A DNA stretch of 36,713 nt. It comes from Chloroflexota bacterium. GTDB lineage: Bacteria > Chloroflexota > Chloroflexia > QHBQ01. Below, one piece after another: positions 692-11,603 of the stretch (within the stretch, counting starts at the first letter, position 1; the number at the start of each line of letters is the position of its first letter). Below the pieces are notes generated by a model. The model worked only from the letters and a program-made list of their open reading frames with translations. It ran no database searches and had not been told where the DNA came from. The translations under genes were made by a program, and so were the position numbers. The stretch covers positions 1-36,713 of the forward strand of contig JAYUUN010000072.1 of NCBI GenBank assembly GCA_043754535.1, read 5' to 3'.

Positions 692-798
692 CTAGGGTAG
701 GGATATAAGCCAGCCAGATGCAACCGCACGGTTCGCCAGTACGTTACATTAGCAGGCGCACCCTCAAGCACCAGAGGTTTGTAGAGAAAGGGATTATT

Positions 799-2211
799 AT
801 GCAAGAACAACGATTGCGGTGGGCTGGGCTGCTGATCATCAGCATGATGCTGGTTGGTACGCTCGGTTGGGCGCAGGGAACAGCGGCGCAGGAGAACAGC
901 GTCACCTTCCCACAGACCGGCAAGACGCTACGGGGCGGCTTCCTCAGCTACTGGCAGACCCATGGTGGCCTCGCCCAGCAGGGCTACCCGATCACCGACG
1001 AGTTCCCAGAGCAGAACCTGACCAACGGCCAGACCTACACCACCCAGTATTTCGAGCGGTCACGCTTCGAGTTCCACCCAGAGAACCAGGACCCCAACCG
1101 GGTGCTGCTCGGCTTGCTGGGCAAGGAGAGCTACCAGGCCCGCTACGCTAACGGCGTAGTCAACCCCAGCCCGCCGGTCGTCCCTGGCGGCGGTAGCCTC
1201 GCCTTCCCGCAGACCGGCCACAGCGTCACCGGCCTGTTCCTCAGCTACTGGCAGACGCGGGGCGGCCTGGCGCAGCAAGGCTACCCGATCACCGATGCGT
1301 TCTTCGAGGTCAGCCAGACTAATGGCAACACCTACCTCACCCAATACTTTGAGCGCGCCCGCTTCGAGTACCACCCAGAGCAGGCCAGCACTGGCTCCCG
1401 CGTGCTGCTTGGCTTGCTGGGCAACGAGGCTTACCAGCGGCGTAGGGGCGGCGGCAATCCGACCCTGACTGCTACGCCGCAGCCCGGCCCGACCAACACC
1501 GCAACCACTCAGCGGATCACCCAGGTGACAGCCCAGGGTAGCATTGGTGGTGGCTCTACCCGCTCGGTCTCGGCAGTATGCCCTGGCAACAGCCTGGTGC
1601 TAGGCGGCGGCTGGGATGCTGGCGGCATCGTCGAAATCTACGCTAGCCTGAAGCAGGAGAATAGCTGGCGGGTCTCGGCCCGCAATATCGGCAGCGGCGG
1701 CGACCAGGTGACTGCCTACGCCTACTGCTTGAGCGGCACCAGCGGTAGTGTCAGCCAGGAGGAGGCAGGCAGCAACGTGGCGAGCGGAGCGACGGGGCGG
1801 GCCTTCGTCGGCTGCGGCAATGGCGTGTTGACTGGCGGTGGCTTCAGCAAAGACCTTGGCATCAACGTCAACCAGGCTGGCCCAGCACGGGACGGCTGGT
1901 TGGTCTCTGGCCGCAACAACCAGAGCGGTAGCCTCAAACTGACTGGCTATGCCATCTGCCTGAGCGGGGTCGCCAACCTGAACGTCAACCTGGTTGACGA
2001 GCAGATCAGCATCGGAGGGCGCGGCAACAGTGGCACCACTGCCCGCTGCCCCGATGGTAGCAGTATTAGTGGAGGCGGCTTTGACACCGACCTGGGGGTG
2101 AACATCTACGCCAGTCGTGGCGAGGGCAACGGCTGGCGCACCGCCGGGGTCAACACCACCAGCGGCAGCGTTGAACTCAATACCCATGCCTTCTGCGTCA
2201 AGCTACCGTAG
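799..2211 (+). CDS. Secreted protein with two Chloroflexi-type cell-surface repeats and three C-terminal Cys-containing beta-rich repeats
   Basis: GAAAGGGA SD before ATG 799 and a signal peptide. Two FPQTG...FLSYWQT.GGLAQQGYPITD...QYFER.RFE.HPE repeats, a P/T linker, then three 'C...GGG(W/F)...W...N...A.C' units. Confidence 0.85.
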   Translation: MQEQRLRWAGLLIISMMLVGTLGWAQGTAAQENSVTFPQTGKTLRGGFLSYWQTHGGLAQQGYPITDEFPEQNLTNGQTYTTQYFERSRFEFHPENQDPNRVLLGLLGKESYQARYANGVVNPSPPVVPGGGSLAFPQTGHSVTGLFLSYWQTRGGLAQQGYPITDAFFEVSQTNGNTYLTQYFERARFEYHPEQASTGSRVLLGLLGNEAYQRRRGGGNPTLTATPQPGPTNTATTQRITQVTAQGSIGGGSTRSVSAVCPGNSLVLGGGWDAGGIVEIYASLKQENSWRVSARNIGSGGDQVTAYAYCLSGTSGSVSQEEAGSNVASGATGRAFVGCGNGVLTGGGFSKDLGINVNQAGPARDGWLVSGRNNQSGSLKLTGYAICLSGVANLNVNLVDEQISIGGRGNSGTTARCPDGSSISGGGFDTDLGVNIYASRGEGNGWRTAGVNTTSGSVELNTHAFCVKLP

Positions 2212-2238
2212 CTAGCGAGCCTGCCCACAAGCTACACA

Positions 2239-2281
2239 GCCGCCCGCCCCTGCCGCAAGGTTGAGGGTGGGCGGCCTCTTT
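2239..2281 (+). terminator. Probable intrinsic terminator
   Basis: GCCGCCCGCCC...GGGTGGGCGGC stem followed by CTCTTT. Confidence 0.65.
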
Positions 2282-2338
2282 GCCCGCTAACAGGCCAGCT
2301 TGCGGCATCGCAATGTAAAGAAGTTAACTTGCCAATGC

Positions 2339-2367
2339 GAAACCTAAAGGCTCCCTTGTTCGTCTAA
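2339..2367 (+). promoter_or_regulatory. Putative ECF-sigma promoter of cvpA
   Basis: GAAAC-N17-CGTCTAA, matching the AAC/CGT consensus of SigW/SigM-type ECF promoters. Confidence 0.5.
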
Positions 2368-2417
2368 TAGGAGGGGCAAACAAAACTGCCCTAAATTACA
2401 AAGCAGATGGTAAAAAC

Positions 2418-2915
2418 ATGAACTGGTTTGACTTCACGATCATCTTCGGCGCACTCGTCTCCACCCTGGCGGGCATCTACTGGGGCTTCATTCGGCAGGC
2501 GATCACCCTGGCCGGGCTGGTCCTGGCGATCTGGCTGGCGGCGCACTTCAACACCCAGGTCGCAGGTATCTTCTTCTTTGTTAGCGATGAGCAAGGGCGC
2601 AAGGTAGCCGCCTTCCTGCTGATCCTGATCGGGGTCAGCGGCCTGATCGGGGTGGCGGCCAGTGTCGCACACACCACCGTTGGCCTCCTGTTCCTCGGCC
2701 TGTTCGATCACATCGCCGGTTCACTACTTGGCTTCGTCCAGTTCCTGGTGCTGATTACGGCGGTGATCATCGGCGGCACCATCTTCCAGGTTCCCTGGTT
2801 GAGCGAGGCGGTCAGCCACTCACTGATCGCGGGCTGGATTACACAACCACTCGGCTTCGTGGCGGGCCTGTTCCCCCCAGAGTTGGGTGGCCTCTGGCAG
2901 CAGTTCCGCTCCTAA
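2418..2915 (+). CDS. cvpA: CvpA family (colicin V production) membrane protein
   Basis: N-terminal MNWFD..I...G...GFIRQ motif, four hydrophobic helices, and FDHIAGSLLG matching the 'DR.LG..FG' motif. Confidence 0.88.
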   Translation: MNWFDFTIIFGALVSTLAGIYWGFIRQAITLAGLVLAIWLAAHFNTQVAGIFFFVSDEQGRKVAAFLLILIGVSGLIGVAASVAHTTVGLLFLGLFDHIAGSLLGFVQFLVLITAVIIGGTIFQVPWLSEAVSHSLIAGWITQPLGFVAGLFPPELGGLWQQFRS

Positions 2916-2949
2916 GCGGCCAGCCCCAGCTACCAGTACGGGCATAAGG

Positions 2950-3896
2950 TCAGTGGGCGGCTGCGTCCGCTGTGGGCTTGAACATCATTATGTCTCCTTT
3001 GTAGGGGCGGAAGCCAACGCTCTCGTAAAGCGGCATTGCCTGGGCGTTCTTGCCCTCCACGCCAAGCTCCACTACGTCCACCGACTGGCGCAGGTATTGC
3101 ACAGCAGAGCGCGGCCCAGCCCCTTGCCTTGATGGGCTGGCACAACCCCCAAGTCCTCGATCCAGCCAACGCGCATACCCCGCCGCTCGATCTCGGCGGG
3201 GTTGATCACAGTGTAGCACACCCCTACTACCTCCTCAGCGTGAGAGGCGAAGAACACCCCTTGCGGGTTGAAGGTCGGCCCTTCACTCAGGTAGACGATC
3301 TCTGCCAGCAGCACGTCCTCGTGCCAGTGGTGCTGGGCAAAGGCGGCGTTGACCGTGCGCCAGTAAGTCTCCACGTCCTGTCCCGACACGAAGGTGCGGA
3401 TCGTGTAGCCAGCAGGGATACGCGGTTTGGCTAGTGCCACTTCGGCGGCTAGCCGCATCTCCCAGCCATAGCGGTCGAACTGGAAGCCGTGCTTCTGGTA
3501 GAACTCGACCGCCAGCGTCGCCCGCTGGTCGGGTGAGGTACGCCACACCTTTGCGTCAACAACAAAGCGACTGAGCCGCTCGTACAGCGTGCTAGCCACC
3601 CCCTGGTTGCGGTAGGCGGGCAGCACGTGCAGGCGCAGCCAGGCTGCCTCACCACCATAAGCCAGGCCGTAGCCGACCATCTTCTCCTCGCTGCCATCCT
3701 CATTGTAGCGCAAGGCTAGCAGGCGGGTAGCAGTCGCCCGATCAGGGTTGTGCCAGACTCGTGTCCACTCCTCAACTGTGATACTCATCTCCATCGGCTC
3801 AAGCCTGTCAAGCTCATTGTAGAAGGCGACAAGGGTAGGGATGTCGCGCTCCTCCATCTCGCGGATCATGTAATCCAGCGTGGTCATCTTCATCAC
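2950..3896 (-). pseudogene. Double-GNAT (MshD-like) acetyltransferase, frameshifted near 3101
   Basis: ORF 3072..3896 matches the neighbouring GNAT up to GLGRALL. The remainder (VQYLRQSVDVVELGVEGKN...LYESVGF) is in another frame ending at 2950. Either a real lesion or an assembly error. Confidence 0.75.
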
Positions 3897-4902
3897 TCCC
3901 CATCTTCTTCCTCATGTTCACCCAGCCGTTGTGCTGCTGGAAGCCCACCCCAGTGTACAGCGGTAGGGCGCGCTCGTTCTTGCCCTCTACGCCAAGCTCC
4001 ACCACGTCGCACTCTTGCCGCAGGTAGGCTATGCCAGTGAGTAGTAGGGAGCGGCCCAGCCCAGCCCGACGGTGATTGGGCATTACGCCGAGGTGTTCGA
4101 TCCAGCCGATCTTTGCACCACGCCGCTGCCACTCCTCGCGGTTGATCGCCGACCAGCAGTAGCCCGCAACCTCGCCAGCCCCATCGGAGGCGAAGAACAA
4201 GCCTTCTGGCTGAAACCAGGATAGCTCAACCGTGTGCTGCATCTCCTCGGTGGTGCGCGGGGTGCTGCCGAAGTGGTCAGCGAAGGTCTCGTTACGTACC
4301 AGGCGGAATAGTTCCAAATCTTGGGCTGGCTGGTAAGTTCGGACGGTGTAGCCTGCTGGCAGGGTTGCTGGATCGACGGCTACGCCCGCTGGCAAGCGCA
4401 TCTGCCAGAAGTAGCGGTCGAAGGTGAAGCCCCGCCGCTCAAGGAACTGCTGCTTCAGCTTGTGCGCTGTGTTGCCGCCCATGTAGATGGCGGTGCAATT
4501 GCTGGCTCCCGCAATCTGCACAACCATGTCGTAGAGGTAGCTGCCTACGCCCTTGTTGCGGTAGTCAGGGTGAATCTGAAGGTTAGTCCAGGCGATCCTC
4601 TCGCCCGGCTTCTCCCGTGGCTCAAACTCCAAATCACCGATCAACTCGCCCTCGCTGCCGTCGGGGGCGATGGCATGAACGAGCAACCAGGTATTCTTCT
4701 CGCGGCGCGGGGCTGCCCACCACTCCTCCAACTGGCTGAGGCTGCTGGTCGTGGTTTCACCATCCATACCTGGTTCGCGGGTGGTCAGCAGGTTGTAGAA
4801 ATCGTTGACCGCGGTCAAGTCGCGCTCCGCAGCAGGGCGGATCGTGTAGCTGAAGTGAGCGGTGTCCACTCGCTGGCTAGCAGTCACGTTGCTAGCAGTC
4901 AT
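3814..4902 (-). CDS. Double-GNAT (MshD/mycothiol synthase-like) N-acetyltransferase
   Basis: Two acetyl-CoA motifs (IHPDYRNKGVG; VMPNHRRAGLGR) and N..ALPLY..VGF. AAGGAGG SD before ATG 4902. Confidence 0.88.
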   Translation of the reverse strand: MTASNVTASQRVDTAHFSYTIRPAAERDLTAVNDFYNLLTTREPGMDGETTTSSLSQLEEWWAAPRREKNTWLLVHAIAPDGSEGELIGDLEFEPREKPGERIAWTNLQIHPDYRNKGVGSYLYDMVVQIAGASNCTAIYMGGNTAHKLKQQFLERRGFTFDRYFWQMRLPAGVAVDPATLPAGYTVRTYQPAQDLELFRLVRNETFADHFGSTPRTTEEMQHTVELSWFQPEGLFFASDGAGEVAGYCWSAINREEWQRRGAKIGWIEHLGVMPNHRRAGLGRSLLLTGIAYLRQECDVVELGVEGKNERALPLYTGVGFQQHNGWVNMRKKMGSDEDDHAGLHDPRDGGARHPYPCRLLQ

Positions 4903-5864
4903 TAGTTAGCCTCCTTAAAGTTCTTGATCATCGCCAGGGTAGTTTCGTGTTGCTGAAAGCCGATGCTCTCGTAGAGCCGCACAGCAGTGGCGTTCTCGCC
5001 GTCCACGTGGAGGTCGATCGCGGAGCAACCGCGCTGGCGCAAGTAGTGGCAACCTGCCAACAGCAGGGCGCGGCCCAGGCCAACCCGGCGGTGGGCTGCC
5101 AGCACACCCAGGTTGGCAATCATGCCGTCGCCGCCCAGCGCAGGGTTATCTTCGTTGGTGAAGACTAGGGTTTCACAATAACCAACCGCTACCCCCTCCT
5201 GCTCAGCAAAGAAGAACCCAGCCATCTCGTGGGTGGGATCGTTGAGCATCTGCTCAATCTCGGCGGCAGAGAGGGTATGCTGCCCAAAGCCGCTGGCGAA
5301 CACCTCGCTGTCAAGCCGCTGCCACAGGGCCTCATCCTGCCCGCGCACGTAGGTACGGAGTGTGTAGCCGTCGGGTAGCTGCATTGGTGGCAGGGAGGCA
5401 GCCGCTGGCAGGCGCAGGTTCCAGAAGTAGCGGCTGAACTGGTAGCCGCGTTCGCGCACGAAGTCTTGCAGCCAGACGTTCTGCTGCCTGGGGGTAAAGG
5501 TCAGGTTGGCTAGCTGCTGCTCAAGCGCAATCGCTTCAGCCCGTTCGTAGAGGTCGGCGGCAAGCGTGACGCGGTAGGCGGGTAGCACAGAGAGGCTGCC
5601 CCAACTTGCCAGATCGTCACCGCTGTGGGCTACCCCAGTAATACCGATGATCTCACCTTCGCTGCCGTCAGGCTGGGTGGCGAGCGCAACCGGTATTGCC
5701 CAAAAGTCTCGCGGCTGGTTGAACCAGGTGGTCAGGTAGGCCAGGCTGCGGGTGGGATTATACGGCTCGGCGGCGTGTAGGGCAGCGTGGTAGGCAACCA
5801 GGGTGGGCAGATCAGCCTCGGTCAGAGGGCGGATGATGTGGGATGGCTGGTTTGGAATTGACAA
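4902..5864 (-). CDS. Double-GNAT (MshD-like) N-acetyltransferase
   Basis: TTG start at 5864, 7 nt after AGGAGG. C-terminal domain has LGVLAAHRRVGLGR and VDGENATAVRLYESIGF; the N-domain motif A is degenerate. Confidence 0.85.
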   Translation of the reverse strand: MSIPNQPSHIIRPLTEADLPTLVAYHAALHAAEPYNPTRSLAYLTTWFNQPRDFWAIPVALATQPDGSEGEIIGITGVAHSGDDLASWGSLSVLPAYRVTLAADLYERAEAIALEQQLANLTFTPRQQNVWLQDFVRERGYQFSRYFWNLRLPAAASLPPMQLPDGYTLRTYVRGQDEALWQRLDSEVFASGFGQHTLSAAEIEQMLNDPTHEMAGFFFAEQEGVAVGYCETLVFTNEDNPALGGDGMIANLGVLAAHRRVGLGRALLLAGCHYLRQRGCSAIDLHVDGENATAVRLYESIGFQQHETTLAMIKNFKEAN

Positions 5865-5881
5865 TTCAAATCCTCCTGAGC

Positions 5882-5912
5882 AAAAAGAGAGGGCGGCAAG
5901 TTGCGCGCCCCT
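5882..5912 (-). terminator. Terminator-like hairpin directly before the GNAT ribosome-binding site
   Basis: AGGGGCG-C-GCA-ACT-TGC-CGCCCT followed by CTCTTTTT on the minus strand. Confidence 0.4.
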
Positions 5913-6074
5913 GAGAAAATGTGTTAGCTGTGGTAGCAGGAACACGGGCAGGCCGCCTCCACTTGCGGGCAGTGGAGGCTAAGATAAAGAATGGCGGATG
6001 ATTGCGGCACGGCTGCGTTCCTGCATGGTGTGACCCCGCTGGGGAGCAGGCGGCTGCCCGCTCCACAACGGCGA

Positions 6075-6299
6075 TCAATACTTTAGTTGCCAGAGTTCGA
6101 GGGTGTTGGCCCGTTCGCGGTCGAGCCGACGGGCGATCTGTTCGCGGCGGAAGTTGCGCTCCTGTGGGTCAACCTGCTCTGGGGTTGGCTCCAGGTGACG
6201 AGTTGCGTCGGCACGCATCCCGATTTCGATGTGGAAGCGGATGTAGAGCCGACGGCGGGGCTGGTTCTGTAGCTCGTCGCGGTTGATGGTCGCTTGCAT
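6075..6299 (-). CDS. Small hypothetical protein (74 aa, charged, predicted helical C-terminus)
   Basis: AAGGAG SD upstream of ATG 6299 (MQATINRDEL...ELWQLKY). GC-rich third codon positions like the neighbouring genes. Confidence 0.65.
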   Translation of the reverse strand: MQATINRDELQNQPRRRLYIRFHIEIGMRADATRHLEPTPEQVDPQERNFRREQIARRLDRERANTLELWQLKY

Positions 6300-6382
6300 C
6301 GCGGGGTGGTCTCCTTGTGTCACTTTACTGCACTTGACAATCCGACTGCGCCGCCCCAACCAACATCTAGCGTTTGCGGGGC

Positions 6383-6430
6383 AAAATAAAACCGTGAGCG
6401 GCGAGTTTTGCACTCATGCCGCTCACGGTT
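6383..6430 (-). terminator. Strong intrinsic terminator / attenuator downstream of the leader ORF
   Basis: Perfect 13-bp stem AACCGTGAGCGGC/GCCGCTCACGGTT followed by TTATTTT. Confidence 0.85.
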
Positions 6431-6455
6431 CCTCGTAGTCGAGGTTCGACCTTCG

Positions 6456-6704
6456 CTAAGGTCTCCGCCTGATTGGCATAGTACACCTGTTAACATCGAA
6501 GCTGCTAGCGGACGCACCGCTACCACTGCCGTAACCGTTATCGTACTGAGAGACTCCGGCGGCGGGCTGCTGCTTGGCAACCGGGATCGGGGACAGGGTG
6601 ATGGTACTGGGCGGGGTCAGCCCGGCAAGGGCGCAGAGACGCGCAACAAGGCCACTGGTCAGACCAGCGAACCGTTGCATTAGCTCGGTGATGTTATCGT
6701 TCAT
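6456..6704 (-). CDS. Putative leader peptide (82 aa, ends PIRRRP*)
   Basis: Lies between a near-consensus promoter and a terminator, with a purine-rich SD (AAAAGGACAGGTGG) and a low-complexity body. Confidence 0.55.
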   Translation of the reverse strand: MNDNITELMQRFAGLTSGLVARLCALAGLTPPSTITLSPIPVAKQQPAAGVSQYDNGYGSGSGASASSFDVNRCTMPIRRRP

Positions 6705-6776
6705 TCTGCCACCTGTCCTTTCCTAAGATTTGGCTGCCGTAGCCATGTGGCGGCAAGTTCTGCCGCATCTGCCGCT

Positions 6777-6805
6777 ATTCTAGCACTACTCTAACCCTTT
6801 GTCAA
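6777..6805 (-). promoter_or_regulatory. sigma70 promoter of the leader/GNAT region
   Basis: TTGACA-N17-TAGAAT with extended TG. Confidence 0.8.
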
Positions 6806-6973
6806 GGGGTTTGCGCTATCTTCTTCCAAAATCGTCAGCACTCACCGATGCAGGGCGCAACCTGCTCCGACCGCTGTGTGCATTGTAGCACGCTGCACAA
6901 GTCTGCACATCAGTCTAAAGTCGTAGATTACGCTCCATCTTTGGTTGGCAGGTACAGGCTGGCTATAGATGCG

Positions 6974-7447
6974 TCAACCTGCGCTTGCGTCCTTCAGTGG
7001 CATGGTCAACACCTGATGCTGCACCTTGAGGCCAAGCGACTGCCAAAAGGCCAGGCCAGTCGTGTTGCTTGCCAGCACCCCCAGGCGCAGGCTGGTTGCA
7101 CCCTGGGCGGCCAGCGCAGCGAAGGCGGCCAGAGCCAACTCGCGACCCAACCCCTGACCGCGTGCCGCTGGCACGATGTAGAACTCCTCCAGATTGCCTA
7201 TCTTCGCGGCGGGGTCGAACCAGGTACCACTGACCAGGAAGATGACGAAGCCCACTGCTGCACCCTGCTGGCGGGCCAGCCAGTAATGCCACTTGCCCTC
7301 GGCCACATTGCTCTGGATCAGGGCGAACCACTTTTGCAGATCGCCCTCGTCGAAGTTGTGCGGCTCAAGTTCGCGGCTGTAATCACGTAGCATCGCCTCG
7401 GCTACTGGCAGGTCACTGACGGCAAAGGGTTGGATGTCCAGGCTCAA
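6974..7447 (-). CDS. Single-domain GNAT N-acetyltransferase
   Basis: FYIVPAARGQGLGR and N..GLAFWQSLG motifs. AAGGAG SD before TTG. Confidence 0.88.
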   Translation of the reverse strand: MSLDIQPFAVSDLPVAEAMLRDYSRELEPHNFDEGDLQKWFALIQSNVAEGKWHYWLARQQGAAVGFVIFLVSGTWFDPAAKIGNLEEFYIVPAARGQGLGRELALAAFAALAAQGATSLRLGVLASNTTGLAFWQSLGLKVQHQVLTMPLKDASAG

Positions 7448-7598
7448 GCATTGCTCCTTGCATAGTTGTTCCCACTGCTAAGTAGGGACGGAGAATAGAG
7501 GATAGGCGGGGCGGCAGGCTGCGCGCCGACCTACTAATCATAGCAGAGTAGGAGAGGGCCTGGCATCAGCCGATGGTAGTATCTCTTGGCAGGTAAGC

Positions 7599-7625
7599 AA
7601 AAGCCCCCCAGCAAACTGGGAGGCT
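7599..7625 (-). terminator. Intrinsic terminator
   Basis: AGCCTCCCAG-TTTG-CTGGGGGGCT-TTT after the prenyl synthase stop. Confidence 0.75.
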
Positions 7626-7645
7626 AATCTCTCTCGCCGGGCCGC

Positions 7646-8671
7646 TTAAGACTTACGGATCAGGGCGAAATCGGCGATCTGCTCAAGTGCTTGGCGCGCC
7701 TCGTTGTTGGGCAAACCAGCAAGGGCAGCCTTCGCTTCGCTGCTGAACAACTGTGCTTCGCGGTGGGCGCGATCCAATGCACTCGACTGCTTGATCAGCC
7801 GGATTACTTCAGTTACCTGCTCGTCACTGGTGATATCGCCCGCAATTACATCGTAGACCATCTGGCGGGCAACAGGGTCATTCGTCTCATCAATGAACTG
7901 CATAGCAGGCAGGGTGACAGTACCCTGGCGCAGGTCGTTGCCTACGGGCTTGCCGAGGTCGGCGGTGGTACTCTCAAAGTCTAGAATGTCATCTACGATT
8001 TGGAAGGCCATCCCCAGTTGTCGCCCATAGTGTCCGAGGGCTTCTACGTCGGTTTCAGGCGCGTGGCTGATGATCGCCCCAATTTGGCAGGAGGCCTCAA
8101 ACAGTGAGGCGGTCTTAGCGTAGATGCGGCTGTAGTAGTTCTCCCGCGCCTTCTCCAACGAACGCCCAGCAGCGACCTGGCCCAGTTCACCATTCATGAT
8201 CGTCACCAAGCTGTCAGCGAAGATACGCACAGCCCGCAGCGATCCGCTTTGGGTGCAGAGGCTGGCAGCCTGGGCAAAGAGATAGTCGCCAGTCAATACT
8301 GTCGCACCGTTGCTGAGGATCGAGTTGAGGGTGGGCTTGCCCCGGCGCACCAACGAGTGGTCAACTGTATCGTCGTGGACGAGGGTGGCAGTGTGCAACA
8401 GTTCGATGGCGGTTGCGGCGAAGACCAGATGTTCAACGTCGTAGTCGTGGAAGCGAGCGGAGAGGAGCAGCACTGTGGGCCGTAGCCGCTTGCCCCCAGC
8501 GGCGATGATCGCTTCCAGCACGTCGGCGAGGAAGCTGAAGGGCATCTTTGCTACCTGACGCAACTGCTCCTCAACCAGCCCCAACTCTGGGCGCACCAGG
8601 GCGGCACGGCTGAGGGGGTTGCTGGCACGGGTGTCGCTCTCGGCGGCAGTAGCGGGACTGGGACTGATCAT
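7646..8671 (-). CDS. Polyprenyl diphosphate synthase (HepT/IspB-like)
   Basis: GGKRLRP, LVHDDTVD...RRG (FARM), KTASLF, FQIVDDILD (SARM), GKPVGNDL. Confidence 0.93.
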   Translation of the reverse strand: MISPSPATAAESDTRASNPLSRAALVRPELGLVEEQLRQVAKMPFSFLADVLEAIIAAGGKRLRPTVLLLSARFHDYDVEHLVFAATAIELLHTATLVHDDTVDHSLVRRGKPTLNSILSNGATVLTGDYLFAQAASLCTQSGSLRAVRIFADSLVTIMNGELGQVAAGRSLEKARENYYSRIYAKTASLFEASCQIGAIISHAPETDVEALGHYGRQLGMAFQIVDDILDFESTTADLGKPVGNDLRQGTVTLPAMQFIDETNDPVARQMVYDVIAGDITSDEQVTEVIRLIKQSSALDRAHREAQLFSSEAKAALAGLPNNEARQALEQIADFALIRKS

Positions 8672-8746
8672 GAGCTACCTGGCTTCCAGAACGCACCTCG
8701 TTGGTGCGGGCGATCTCGGTGGGGTGTTCATCCGCCCCTGCCCCTG

Positions 8747-8776
8747 ATTATAACCGCCTACTCAATACTTTGTCAA
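8747..8776 (-). promoter_or_regulatory. sigma70 promoter
   Basis: TTGACA-N18-TATAAT upstream of the prenyl synthase. Confidence 0.8.
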
Positions 8777-8802
8777 GATATTCACAATCTTTTAGCTACA
8801 AC

Positions 8803-8827
8803 AAAGCCGCCTCGTTGATGAGGCGGC
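8803..8827 (-). terminator. Intrinsic terminator
   Basis: GCCGCCTC-N6-GAGGCGGC followed by TTTGTTGT. Confidence 0.7.
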
Positions 8828-8845
8828 AAGGCAGCAGCAAGTTGG

Positions 8846-9469
8846 TCAGCGGATGTAGGGGCTGGTGGGTATGATGCGAATAAAATCCCGCTCCAGGTTA
8901 GCATCGCTCTCGTTGAGGTTCAGATTGCGGATTACAGTGCGACTAGCAGCAGCCATGAAATCATACTCTACGCGATCCTGCTCGGTCGAAGCCTTCTGCG
9001 GGGTATTGCGCTCAGTGGCGGCCTTCGGGGGCTGCGGGTTGAGGCGGGGCTGCACTGACTGCGCTGGCTGCGCCGTAGCGGGGCTGGCAAGGGTTTGCAC
9101 CACGCTGGTTGCTGACCGCCCGCCACCAGAAACAAGGAACGGGGCCATAGAGGGGGCTGCAACCAGCAGGAGCAACAATACTGCTAGCATACTCTGCGTC
9201 AGGCGCGGTACTGGGAAGAACAACTGGCTGTGACTGACCTGCATCTGGGTATAACGATTGCTGAAGCTGCGTTTGGCAGGCGGGGCAGGCAAGGGCTGGT
9301 TGGCGAGGATGCTATATTGCAACTTCTGCCATGCGTCGGCGGGTGGCTCGGACGTAGCTACCTGACGCTGGATCGCATGGCGAATTAGCTGCTCGGTCAC
9401 CCCTTTTTCGGCAGGCAACTGTATCGTAGGCAGGCTACCAGATTGTTGGTTAGAAACCCTGCGTGTCAT
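8846..9469 (-). CDS. Putative membrane-anchored anti-sigma factor
   Basis: Overlaps the ECF sigma 3' end by 20 nt. PPADAWQKLQ helix, one TM segment, and a P/A/Q-rich extracytoplasmic tail. Confidence 0.6.
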   Translation of the reverse strand: MTRRVSNQQSGSLPTIQLPAEKGVTEQLIRHAIQRQVATSEPPADAWQKLQYSILANQPLPAPPAKRSFSNRYTQMQVSHSQLFFPVPRLTQSMLAVLLLLLVAAPSMAPFLVSGGGRSATSVVQTLASPATAQPAQSVQPRLNPQPPKAATERNTPQKASTEQDRVEYDFMAAASRTVIRNLNLNESDANLERDFIRIIPTSPYIR

Positions 9470-10082
9470 AAATAATCTCCCTGGTTAGCTCGGCCCCCGG
9501 TGAGGTAGCAACCGCGAACTCCTTCTCCAGACTGATCCGCAACACCTGGCGGGCATAGTGTAGGCGCGACTTGACGGTGCCGACCGGGCAATCCAGGATG
9601 TAGCTGATTTCTGGCAAGGAAAACTCTTGCAAGTAGTGAAGGACAACGACGACGCGATGCTTGAGCGGTAGCTTGTTGATTGCTTTTTGCAGGGTAGCAC
9701 TAAGTTCACTGTGTTCGGCAGCCTGCTCTGGAGAGCGGCTAGGGTCGGCAAAGAGGCGTTCGGCAAGGTTCTCCAACGGCTCCAACCAGGAGCGACGTTT
9801 CTTCAGCACATTGCAGCTAAGATTAACTGCCACCCGGTGCAGCCAGGGAGAGAGTGGCACGTCGGTGTTGATCCGATTGATGTTTTGATAGGTCTTGAGG
9901 AAACAGTCTTGCAGCACTTCTTCAGCCGCCCCGCTATCCCGCGTGACCGCCAGCGCAGTGCGGTAGATCATCCCCTTGTAGCGTATAAATAGCTGCTCGA
10001 AGGCATTTAGATCGCCTCCTTGCACGCGGATCACCAACGTAGCGTCATCAACGCTGGTTGCGCCAACCTGTGTGTCTGGCAT
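9450..10082 (-). CDS. ECF-family RNA polymerase sigma factor
   Basis: GDLNAFEQL, AEEVLQDCF, WLHRVAVN (region 2) and EISYILDCPVGTVKSRL (region 4). The ATG after CAGGAAA was chosen as start. Confidence 0.92.
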   Translation of the reverse strand: MPDTQVGATSVDDATLVIRVQGGDLNAFEQLFIRYKGMIYRTALAVTRDSGAAEEVLQDCFLKTYQNINRINTDVPLSPWLHRVAVNLSCNVLKKRRSWLEPLENLAERLFADPSRSPEQAAEHSELSATLQKAINKLPLKHRVVVVLHYLQEFSLPEISYILDCPVGTVKSRLHYARQVLRISLEKEFAVATSPGAELTREIIYDTQGF

Positions 10083-10280
10083 ATTGTTTTCCTGTGTGCG
10101 TGCTGACACAGACGAACCTGGGCGGCAGCCCTTCGGCACATTCGTGTCCACTACGATCCTCTCGCCCCAAACCCTGGGCGGCAGCGCAGAGCTATACACC
10201 ATATACCGATGCTGGGCGAGATCGGTTCAATCTAAGGCTCTCTATTCAGCAGACTTTAACCCTAAATACGGGATTGCCAT

Positions 10281-10309
10281 ATGCTACCACAGGTGGTTGA
10301 GGGAGTCAA
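10281..10309 (-). promoter_or_regulatory. sigma70-like promoter upstream of the ECF sigma
   Basis: TTGACT-N17-TAGCAT with extended TG. Confidence 0.5.
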
Positions 10310-10409
10310 GTTTGAGCCAGGCGAGGTGAACGTTCGCGGTTGCGGTGACGAGGTGGCGTACTCCCATGGCTTGACGCACTCTCGGCGCGTGGGCTGGCCT
10401 GCTGGTTTA

Positions 10410-11603
10410 CTACGTGGGTGGGCGCAGTGCATCACCAGCAAGGCGCAGGCGGCGGGCGGCTTCGTCCAACGTCGGCTCGACTTTGGCGAAGCAGAAGCGG
10501 GCGAGGTGGCGGGCTGCTACCCGGTCGCTCGCCTGGTAGAAGGCAGAGGGTGGGATGCAAGCCACCCCCACTTCGGTGGTCAGGTAGCGGGCAAAGGCTA
10601 CATCGTCGCTGAAGCCAAAGGCGGTGGTGTCGGCCATCGTAAAGTAGGTACCCTGCGGATTGAGCGGGGTGAGGCCGCCAGCGATGAGGGCTGCGGCCAG
10701 CTTGTCGCGCTTGGCGGCGTACATGGCAGCGAAGTCGGTGTAGTAGCCCCGCTCGTCCGCCTCGATCAGAGCGACGGCGGCAGCGACCTGGAAAGGGGTG
10801 GCTGTAGCGAAGGTAACAAACTGATGGACGCGGCGGACGGCGGCGGTCAGGTCGGCAGGGGCAGTCAGGTAGCCGATCTTCCACCCGGTCAGGCTGAAGG
10901 TCTTGCCCGTGCTGTTGACCGTCACCGTGCGTTCGCGCATCCCTGGCAAGCTCGCCAGCGCAACGTGCTGGTTGCCATCGAACAGTAGATGCTCGTACAC
11001 CTCGTCGGCCACCGCCAGCGCATCGTACTGCTGGCAGAGAGCGGCGATCAACTCAAGCTCAGCGCGGCAGTACACCTTGCCGGTCGGGTTGTGCGGCGTG
11101 TTGACTATCACCGCCTTCGTGCGCTGGCTGAATGCCGCTCGCAACTCCCCCTCGTCAATGTGCCAGTCAGGGGCGTGCAGGGTGACGTAGCGTGGCACGC
11201 CGCCCGCCATCACCACGTCGGGTGGGTAGGCATCGTAGAAGGGCTGGAAAATCACCACCTCGTCGCCCGGCTCGATCAAGGCCTGTAGCGTGCTGAACAG
11301 AGCCTCGGTTGCGCCGCTGGTCACCGTCACCTCGGCCTCGGCATCATACTGTAGGCCATAGTGCCGCTGCAACTTTGCGGCAATCGCCTGGCGCAAGGCG
11401 GGCAAACCAGGTGAGGGGGCGTATTGATTTTGGTCGGCGTTGATTGCCGCCACCGCCGCCTGCTTGACGTACTCTGGGCCGGGGAAGTCGGGGAAGCCCT
11501 GGGAGAGATTGACGGCGTTGTGTTCAAGCGCGAGACGGCTCATCTCGCTAAAGATCGAAGTGCCAAAGCTGCGGATGCGGGTGGCCGCGTGGTCACTGAT
11601 CAT
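10410..11603 (-). CDS. PLP-dependent aminotransferase class I/II (YbdL/kynurenine aminotransferase-like)
   Basis: VNLSQGFPD, NTPHNPTG, DEVYE, STGKTFSLTGWKIG (PLP lysine), RFCFAK. AAGGAGG SD. Confidence 0.92.
   Translation of the reverse strand: MISDHAATRIRSFGTSIFSEMSRLALEHNAVNLSQGFPDFPGPEYVKQAAVAAINADQNQYAPSPGLPALRQAIAAKLQRHYGLQYDAEAEVTVTSGATEALFSTLQALIEPGDEVVIFQPFYDAYPPDVVMAGGVPRYVTLHAPDWHIDEGELRAAFSQRTKAVIVNTPHNPTGKVYCRAELELIAALCQQYDALAVADEVYEHLLFDGNQHVALASLPGMRERTVTVNSTGKTFSLTGWKIGYLTAPADLTAAVRRVHQFVTFATATPFQVAAAVALIEADERGYYTDFAAMYAAKRDKLAAALIAGGLTPLNPQGTYFTMADTTAFGFSDDVAFARYLTTEVGVACIPPSAFYQASDRVAARHLARFCFAKVEPTLDEAARRLRLAGDALRPPT

Follow-up and report, generated by a model that had tools for sequence, protein, structure and literature searches.

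A small open reading frame with conserved rare arginine codons, a stop-codon hairpin and an intrinsic terminator as a candidate translation-coupled attenuator in a family of Chloroflexia

Upstream open reading frames (ORFs) that link the passage of a ribosome to the expression of a downstream gene are known from amino acid attenuators of the trpL, hisL, leuL and pheL type, with a first hairpin around the stop codon of the leader, and from TnaC, a peptide that ends in Pro-stop; small terminated units of other kinds include the dual-function RNA SgrS/SgrT and the leaky terminators found after precursor-peptide genes. Here, we describe a unit with features of all these systems on a 36,713-nucleotide (nt) stretch of DNA from a Chloroflexota bacterium (GenBank assembly GCA_043754535.1, contig JAYUUN010000072.1, positions 1 to 36,713; the window hereafter), in which a small ORF of 82 codons with rare Arg codons at its end runs into a hairpin at its own stop codon and an intrinsic terminator, followed by the gene of an Arg-rich orphan protein of 74 amino acids (aa). 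The source genome is an 89%-complete metagenome-assembled genome (MAG) of the class Chloroflexia that we compared with its same-genus relative G001 (together genus 1) and with three genomes of a sister genus (genus 2: G002, G003 and G004), all of them MAGs that amount effectively to three independent lineages (genus 1, G003 and G004/G002).

The unit shares with attenuators of the trpL, hisL, leuL and pheL type the succession of promoter, translated leader with a cluster of codons for one amino acid, hairpin around the stop, intrinsic terminator and promoter-less gene, but it has no antiterminator, its leader exceeds theirs in length by a factor of 3 to 5 and is conserved at the N-terminus, and the downstream gene is not one of amino acid biosynthesis. 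The likeness to TnaC lies in an Arg-Pro-stop end that is found in genus 1 only, so that Pro-stop is not conserved here, and TnaC blocks the access of Rho by its stop, whereas termination in our unit is intrinsic. As in RNAs of the SgrS/SgrT type and at leaky terminators, a small peptide is encoded on what would be a short, stable transcript with a terminator, conservation is highest in the segment beside that terminator and the downstream genes would depend on read-through; in contrast to these, no target complementarity was found in the genome and there are no core biosynthetic genes. The nearest characterised precedent is Salmonella orf34, in which consecutive AGG and CGG codons and a hairpin downstream of the stop codon are described to let the position of the ribosome set mRNA structure, Rho termination and decay (PMC6386406). 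This speF leader of Salmonella and Escherichia coli (SpeFL) is a translated upstream ORF with a rare AGG-CGG dicodon as its sensing point, another Arg codon beside its stop and a hairpin just downstream whose formation depends on where the ribosome stands in orf34, and its output of premature termination and altered mRNA fate is the one that we propose here. Yet orf34 comprises 34 codons with the Arg pair at codons 12 and 13, compared with 54 to 82 codons and Arg codons in last position here, and it is described to work through Rho, a helix masking the Shine-Dalgarno (SD) sequence and RNase G where we find an intrinsic terminator (PMC6386406). No ornithine decarboxylase is encoded near our ORF, and the peptide has neither sequence similarity to SpeFL nor a homologue outside the family in the collections searched.

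A further class of relevant systems are the arrest peptides that monitor protein export and insertion. By the search criteria of a published survey, such monitoring substrates are expected as ORFs before sec or yidC genes with an N-terminal signal or transmembrane segment, a conserved C-terminus and more than 30 residues up to the end of that C-terminus (PMC10987492). SecM, MifM, VemP, ApcA/ApdA/ApdP and CliM resemble our ORF as orphan upstream ORFs with an N-terminal part, a spacer at least about as long as the exit tunnel and a conserved C-terminal motif (PMC10987492). However, no sec or yidC gene lies downstream in our case, there is no evident N-terminal signal or transmembrane segment and no RAPP- or RAGP-like motif, and where the Sec/YidC monitoring substrates unmask an SD in a nearby stem-loop, a terminator intervenes here. 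The main text of the survey contains no instance of "Chloroflex" (PMC10987492).

Conservation in and around the unit (Table 1) peaks from the end of the ORF to the spacer before the 74-aa gene. In an 8-kb alignment to G001 with 87.4% identity, the longest perfect run (298 nt, 6166-6463) takes in the two final sense codons of the ORF with its stop, then hairpins, terminator and spacer, and reaches 45 codons into the 74-aa gene, where no synonymous change is seen relative to this same-genus genome; the next perfect runs measure 98 nt (5' untranslated region [UTR] and ORF start) and 62 nt. The leader module alone is insufficient to account for 298 identical nucleotides, so that an additional element, in RNA or DNA, or recent exchange would be possible. 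Identity between G004 and G002 reaches 98% over a segment of 100 nt from C-terminal block to terminator 5' arm, the top value in a 3-kb alignment, compared with 80% for the middle of the ORF and 66-92% for the GNAT gene. The last 14 codons of these two genomes differ by no synonymous change (synonymous changes per site, pS, of 0.27 upstream), and the nine codons N-R-x-T-x-P-I-R-R differ between genus 1 and G004 by a single synonymous change over ~7 sites and two first-position differences, compared with a pS of 0.73 in the rest of the ORF. Since the synonymous sites of the C-terminal block are conserved in this way, selection acts on nucleotides or codon identity and not on the peptide alone.

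Table 1. Features of the unit, with positions in the window (5' to 3' order on the minus strand)
Feature	Position	Strand	Basis and remarks
Conserved element ATCTACGACTTTAGACTGATGT with inverted repeat (ACATC/GATGT in genus 2)	6907..6928	-	5' of the promoters; alignment of 5/5 units
P1, upstream extended -10 promoter copy TGCTACAAT	6882..6890	-	Alignment; resembles the single promoter of genus 2
P2, sigma-70-type promoter, TTGACA-17 nt-TAGAAT with TG extension	6777..6805	-	11/12 consensus matches; kept in G001
5'-terminal hairpin of the predicted transcript, GCGGCA-GAACU-UGCCGC	6750..6766	-	Folding; stem in 5/5 units, loops differ
Conserved 5'UTR block AAATCTTA and SD CAGGTGG (6715-6709), 4 nt 5' of ATG	6709..6731	-	Invariant alignment columns
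Small ORF, 82 aa	6456..6704	-	ORF list; coding signature; 54-58 aa in genus 2
C-terminal block AAC AGG TGT ACT ATG CCA ATC AGG CGG (N R C T M P I R R)	6465..6491	-	Alignment
Hairpin H1, GACCUU (6463-6458) / AAGGUC (6453-6448)	6448..6463	-	Folding
Hairpin H2, CCUCG (6444-6440) / CGAGG (6435-6431)	6431..6444	-	Folding; genus 1 only
Alternative pairing GUCGA (6450-6446) / UCGAC (6442-6438)	6438..6450	-	Competes with H1 and H2; genus 1 only
Intrinsic terminator, 13-bp GC-rich stem (6430-6418 with 6402-6390), structured loop, U tract UUAUUUU (6389-6383)	6383..6430	-	Folding
Spacer, 83 nt, SD AAGGAGA at 6316-6310	6300..6382	-	100% identical to G001; no promoter-like site
Arg-rich 74-aa orphan gene, presumed regulated gene	6075..6299	-	ORF list

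The codons at the end of the ORF are unusual for this genome. An earlier interpretation drawn from the letters of the window (the sequence-only reading) had pointed to AGG and AGA as uncommon Arg codons, and the count bears it out: in 1596 ORFs of at least 300 aa, AGG, CGA and AGA make up 5.3%, 4.8% and 1.9% of Arg codons compared with 56% for the dominant CGC, which is used for none of the six Arg codons of the window ORF. Its last 14 codons have a codon adaptation index of 0.319, a value that ranks at the 0.75th percentile among random 14-codon chunks and at the 2.8th among gene ends. The ORF closes with AGG (6470-6468), CGG (6467-6465), AGA (6464-6462), CCT (6461-6459) and TAG (6458-6456), so that 4 of its last 11 codons are for Arg (5-6 of the last 13 in genus 2). 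The C-terminal block holds two rare AGG codons, both kept in all five genomes as is the AGG-CGG dicodon (6470-6465), together with a small hairpin, H0 (6487-6475). Across the two genera, seven C-terminal residues are invariant (N72, R73, T75, P77, I78, R80 and R81; 5/5 genomes), giving the motif NRxTxPI(F)RRxR; loss of C-terminal conservation had been named beforehand as a refutation of the proposed arrest or sensor peptide, and the proposal survives this test, as the motif is retained together with both AGG codons and a stop hairpin. Two details of the sequence-only reading did not extend beyond the window genome or its genus: the Pro-stop end is found in 2/5 genomes and replaced by Cys-stop in the other 3/5 (C-termini PIRRRP in genus 1 and PIFRR(R/Q/F)RC in genus 2), and the AGA codon is private to this genome, with CGA in both G001 and a 99.6%-identical strain.

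This AGA codon stems from A at 6464, which is one of two private substitutions of the window genome in an otherwise invariant unit and costs one pair of H1 (6 bp here, 7 bp with C at this position in G001 and the near-identical strain); the other is C at 6774, just 3' of the -10 element. At both positions, the other state is common to the 99.6%-identical strain and the sister species.

By the evidence available from sequence, the ORF is translated. Its copy in G001 has 96% amino acid identity and differs by 10 substitutions, 7 of them synonymous and 3 non-synonymous, which corresponds to a ratio of non-synonymous to synonymous changes per site (pN/pS) of 0.14 in the ORF frame compared with 1.65 and 2.71 in the other two frames; by a binomial estimate, at least 7 synonymous changes out of 10 have a p of ~0.004 under neutrality. 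Start, frame and C-terminal block stay in register despite a length difference of ~25 codons between the genera and 3-nt indels. The body of the ORF evolves faster in genus 2, with a pN/pS of 0.52 (G004 vs G002) and 0.80. Besides the C-terminus, residues N4, S17, G18, R22, L23, A25 and A27 are conserved near the N-terminus, and the middle of the peptide varies in length; the end of the N-terminal element and the end of the conserved C-terminus are ~55 residues apart in genus 1, ~32 in G004/G002 and ~28 in G003. Overall identity across genera is 33-42% for the leader peptide and 35-43% for the 74-aa protein. The leader peptide matches no Pfam or NCBIfam family and is predicted to be disordered (Atlas model, predicted local distance difference test [pLDDT] 0.34). 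We rejected by eye a signal-peptide reading of the conserved RLxAxA motif, as the preceding segment is non-hydrophobic; the N-terminal 27 residues carry E, Q and R within what would be the hydrophobic core. Read-through of the stop codon was dropped because a second in-frame stop follows 10 codons later in the window.

The leader ORF is strictly linked to the 74-aa gene. A search with the 74-aa protein retrieved orthologues in 3/3 sister-genus genomes, and the genus 2 leaders were found only through this neighbouring gene: upstream of each orthologue lie a promoter, a 5' hairpin, AAATCTTA...CAGGTG-ATG, an ORF of 54-58 codons, a stop hairpin, a terminator and a spacer with an SD. Synteny across the genera extends to a polyprenyl synthetase gene upstream and a two-domain MshD-like GNAT gene downstream. 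With a profile of the five leader peptides, exactly one copy per genome was found in 5/5 genomes of the family, in all of which it adjoins the 74-aa orthologue, and a profile of the 74-aa protein matched 5/401 genomes of the class, all of them in the family, plus one weak match (E = 4e-4). A search of 41 relatives with the leader protein gave full-length matches only in G000 and G001 besides three weak matches with internal stops. The DNA pattern of the C-terminal block occurs at six loci in genome contigs, four of them in MAGs of the family and two in unrelated phyla that we take as chance, and at one locus in metagenome contigs, in a 99.6%-identical strain. Searches by profile and by word in protein collections with 5.8 and 1.8 billion entries returned no homologue of the leader peptide except the G001 protein; five further matches were long proteins matched in several short stretches and were dropped as low-complexity. 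In the collections searched, the unit is thus restricted to a single family of Chloroflexia as judged by these searches, and it comprises two orphan small-protein families (82 aa and 74 aa), both of which standard annotation misses in genus 2. An Rfam search over 5800-7100 at E up to 10 gave only noise of the microRNA or small nucleolar RNA type below gathering scores (best E = 0.96).

All features of the unit lie on the minus strand (read from 6860 to 6050) in the order of promoter, 5' hairpin, ORF, H1, H2, terminator, spacer and 74-aa gene, and those listed in the sequence-only reading are all present where it had placed them. The 106-nt 3' region folds at -50.3 kcal/mol (z = -5.88; 0/200 shuffles fold as well). 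In H1, the T of the stop codon closes the stem and its AG lies in the loop. A stop-codon hairpin is found in 5/5 genomes with a minimum free energy of -9.1 to -11.2, but it is built from three unrelated stems (GACCUU/AAGGUC, ACGGUG/CACCGU and GGUUCcGGU/ACCcGAACC), and its recurrence in three lineages with changed sequence, at ~1e-3 if the lineages are independent and under a definition chosen post hoc, is suggestive; 18% of 2706 stop contexts in the genome fold as well as that of H1. H2 and the alternative pairing GUCGA/UCGAC are confined to genus 1, and genus 2 instead has an outer helix AUCUUCaGGC/GCCcGAAGAU that encloses H1. The GC-rich hairpin with U tract further downstream is conserved as a structure, with 93.2% of 44 cells paired across 4 distinct sequences and 2 pairs with double-sided changes, and by these signs is an intrinsic (Rho-independent) terminator that a simple scanner missed because its loop exceeds 8 nt; the predicted terminated transcript measures ~390 nt. 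No promoter-like site was seen between the terminator and the 74-aa gene in the window or at the genus 2 loci L016 and L017.

Upstream, genus 1 carries two tandem extended -10 copies, TGCTACAAT (6890-6882) and TGCTAGAAT (6785-6777), with P2 ~105 nt downstream of P1, and the ATCTACGACTTTAGACTGATGT element found 5' of the promoter in all five units may be an operator. In genus 2 (L016-L018), 10-13 bp can form between the start-codon region GAAGAUGGCA... and the conserved C-terminal block, while in genus 1 the SD pairs instead with CACCCUGUCC inside the ORF (6592-6601); long-range masking of the start region was rejected as a conserved explanation, as the pairing partners are non-homologous between the genera. 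All five units have a G(C/T)CCCC word right after the U tract (6376-6382 in the window, with equivalents in L016-L018); its partner in the RNAalifold structure is the GGY of the first AGG codon, a pairing that would be relevant only to transcripts that read through the terminator.

The absence of a visible promoter before the 74-aa gene, the strict linkage and the peak of conservation from ORF end to spacer favour a cis-regulatory module over conservation of a protein C-terminus alone, and our tentative preference, short of an even chance, is for a cis-acting, translation-coupled attenuator that would operate at the level of RNA or codons and serve the 74-aa gene. The last ~12 codons, the stop hairpin and the terminator would form a single module that sets how much promoter-derived transcription enters the 74-aa gene. 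Given the constraint on nucleotides and codon choice in this module, its most likely input would be the passage of the ribosome over the rare Arg codons (AGG ... AGG-CGG-CGA/AGA) as it melts the hairpin at the stop, making the unit a sensor of translation rate or Arg-tRNA as in Salmonella orf34. The terminator would then be leaky or regulated and the speed of the ribosome would be the signal; with no antiterminator in sight, that signal would have to reach the terminator by way of a trans factor, a kinetic effect or control of mRNA decay.

Several observations weigh against such an attenuator. We folded the full predicted transcripts of the five units with a 29-nt ribosome mask at nine A-site positions (codon -14 to the stop) and without ribosome, using partition-function calculations that are thermodynamic and not co-transcriptional. 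Across 5 sequences x 9 positions, terminator pairing never falls and no antiterminator appears: the pairing probability of the terminator is 0.88-0.94 in genus 1, 0.90-0.93 in G004/G002 and 0.55-0.56 in G003, and a second calculation for the window gave 0.98-0.99 for the terminator and at least 0.68 for H2, with a peak of 0.28 for the alternative hairpin. The stop codon lies 25-32 nt 5' of the terminator stem, so that a terminating ribosome would be unable to cover it. Hairpins of at least 5 bp touching the stop are found in 9.05% of the 2706 stop contexts of the genome, there is no arginine-pathway gene among the scanned neighbours downstream, and the three independent lineages are all represented by MAGs. 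Finally, the ORF is long for a leader (54-82 aa) with a conserved N-terminal motif, and its body is under purifying selection in genus 1, both of which fit a functional small protein.

The same calculations bear on the switch that the sequence-only reading had envisaged. Its mutually exclusive hairpins do exist as pairings, but H2 and its alternative are genus-specific, the latter stays at or below 0.28, and since the ribosome mask leaves the terminator unaffected, these hairpins are uncoupled from it. The words ACGGTT (6538-6533) and ACGGTTC (6675-6669), which had been noted as complementary to the 5' arm of the terminator, are likewise present, yet such complementarity is reached by 15.8% of 500 shuffles and hence at chance level, G001 has a synonymous change at 6675 that weakens ACGGTTC, and there is no homologous counterpart in genus 2. 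RNA folding with the ribosome footprint masked, which had been suggested as a check, thus left terminator pairing unchanged in 5/5 sequences. Taken together, masked folding, chance-level ACGGTT matches and the distance from stop to stem do not support classical attenuation.

For this reason, we regard as highly improbable, and already refuted in large part, a trpL-type Arg attenuator, in which a ribosome held up at the Arg codons would release the 3' arm of H1 and thereby lead via a chain of H1, GUCGA/UCGAC and H2 to antitermination. A stop codon at the loop of the first hairpin with a terminator to follow and a cluster of Arg codons at the ORF end (4 of the last 11, or 5-6 of 13 in genus 2) are what one would expect of it, but the terminator is unaffected in every ribosome state, the alternative hairpin (<=0.28) does not displace H2 (>=0.68), both are absent from genus 2, the ACGGTT matches do not exceed chance, with one of them eroded in G001, and no arginine-pathway gene follows. 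That the terminator forms in every modelled state would instead suit an ordinary gene for an abundant small protein with its own promoter and terminator, from which the 74-aa gene receives a fixed trickle of read-through and nothing is sensed. In such a protein, a flexible linker would join a functional motif at the N-terminus to a basic one at the C-terminus, in agreement with a pN/pS of 0.14 in genus 1 and 0.52 between G004 and G002, with the conserved N-terminal residues and with a cross-genus identity (33-42%) similar to that of the 74-aa protein (35-43%), and the combination of strong promoter, 5' hairpin and terminator is the usual layout of a stable monocistronic mRNA. What this explanation leaves unaccounted for is the cross-genus conservation of rare codons and synonymous sites in the last 12 codons, and the fact that no coding sequence nearby is as conserved as 3'UTR and spacer; moreover, the product is predicted to be disordered (Atlas pLDDT 0.34) and has no homologue except the same-genus copy among 5.8 + 1.8 billion proteins. 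We therefore consider an ordinary gene unlikely, though a serious contender.

The pattern of N-terminal motif, linker of variable length and C-terminal motif is also that of a true nascent-chain arrest peptide of the monitoring-substrate kind, whose N-terminal part would act as a sensor outside the exit tunnel when the ribosome stands on NRxTxPI(F)RRxR and whose arrest or release would control downstream expression. Two of the four criteria of the published search (PMC10987492) have a counterpart in our ORF, the conserved C-terminus in all five sequences and the long spacer in genus 1 and narrowly in G004/G002 (~28 residues in G003), and genus 1 has a basic run on rare codons followed by Pro-stop. 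We nonetheless judge an arrest peptide rather improbable, as the changes in the block (two at first positions, C/R and M/V, and one or two at third positions) follow a nucleotide-level pattern, Pro-stop is not conserved, no Sec/YidC gene lies downstream, the C-termini have no RAPP-like motif (of the R-A-P-P, R-A-G-P or R-G-P-P types) and no SD-masking hairpin is within reach of a stalled ribosome, the next SD being ~140 nt away beyond the terminator. The peak of nucleotide conservation at the 3' end beside the terminator could alternatively mean that function resides in the RNA, be it a dual-function RNA of ~390 nt or a 3'-end RNA whose 3' block is a seed for base-pairing in trans or a protein-binding site. 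Its 5' hairpin and strong terminator are features of stable RNAs and the genus 2 block can pair with the start region of its own ORF over 10-13 bp, but this self-complementarity is not kept in genus 1, the 27-nt block finds only its own locus in the 3.87-Mb genome at up to 6 mismatches (no second copy and no extended complement), 11-mers match at about chance rate, no Rfam family was detected (best E = 0.96) and 3-nt indels in and just after the block preserve the frame, so that a role of the RNA in trans appears improbable. For a precursor of the type found in ribosomally synthesized and post-translationally modified peptides (RiPPs), followed by a leaky terminator and tailoring genes (for the 74-aa protein and the MshD-like GNATs), the chances seem very slim. 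The peptide is indeed a small disordered orphan with a strong promoter and a terminator before the downstream genes, a two-domain GNAT is encoded downstream in both genera, and the GNATs weakly match a RiPP N-acetyltransferase model (E 1.9e-5 to 1.3e-3, far below cutoff); however, these matches are generic, the 12 ORFs scanned (718-11603) include no core RiPP enzyme family, and it is the C-terminus, the would-be core, that is most conserved and the middle that is least, which is not the usual pattern of RiPP precursors.

There is also a small chance that the unit belongs to a new class of translation-sensing attenuators without antiterminator hairpin, composed of an N-terminal sensor, a linker of about tunnel length and NRxTxPI(F)RRxR on conserved rare Arg codons set in hairpins, with arrest at the end of the ORF or a +1 shift at a hungry AGG-C, the same site as in the +1 shift of yeast Ty1. 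In the +1 version, ribosomes that had changed frame would move onto or through the terminator and thereby give access to the 74-aa gene. The +1 frame runs through the terminator in genus 1, ends 1 nt before the stem in G004/G002 and 10 nt before the outer stem in G003; +1/-1 frameshift geometry was rejected as inconsistent across the three lineages and is kept only as this low-odds idea.

The presumed target of the attenuator, the 74-aa protein, matches no Pfam or NCBIfam family, and its AlphaFold model is of low confidence (pLDDT 68, predicted template modelling score 0.28) with one long C-terminal helix. Genus 2 has a second paralogue of the 74-aa gene (L019, L020 and L021) directly after a DUF2089 zinc-ribbon/helix-turn-helix gene, with no leader ORF and no terminator between them, an adjacency that hints at a 74-aa protein working with a DNA-binding regulator. 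In the neighbourhood, the 12 scanned ORFs encode GNATs, a polyprenyl synthetase, a sigma factor, an aminotransferase and CvpA. Three tandem genes for MshD-like two-domain GNATs lie downstream (3072-5945) and one for a single-domain GNAT upstream (6974-7447), none of which reaches the mycothiol-synthase cutoff; at this place, genus 2 has a single gene of the kind. Models of N-acetylglutamate synthase give 23-28 bits on these GNATs compared with cutoffs of 280. A GC-rich hairpin without U tract, GGAGCGGGCAGCCGCCUGCUCC (6040-6062), is located between the 74-aa gene and the first GNAT gene.

Should the ORF prove to be only a small-protein gene with a leaky terminator, the finding would be an ordinary one, yet the strong conservation of 3'UTR and spacer would be left unexplained. 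If our favoured reading of a translation-coupled attenuator is true, it would place leader-ORF control in Chloroflexia in a form unforeseen by the classical antiterminator model and mean that long upstream ORFs (54-82 codons) with conserved ends can serve genes other than those of the Sec/YidC pathways. With one promoter, ORF, hairpin and terminator, the unit is a compact case for separating selection at the levels of peptide, codons and RNA at the end of a small ORF.

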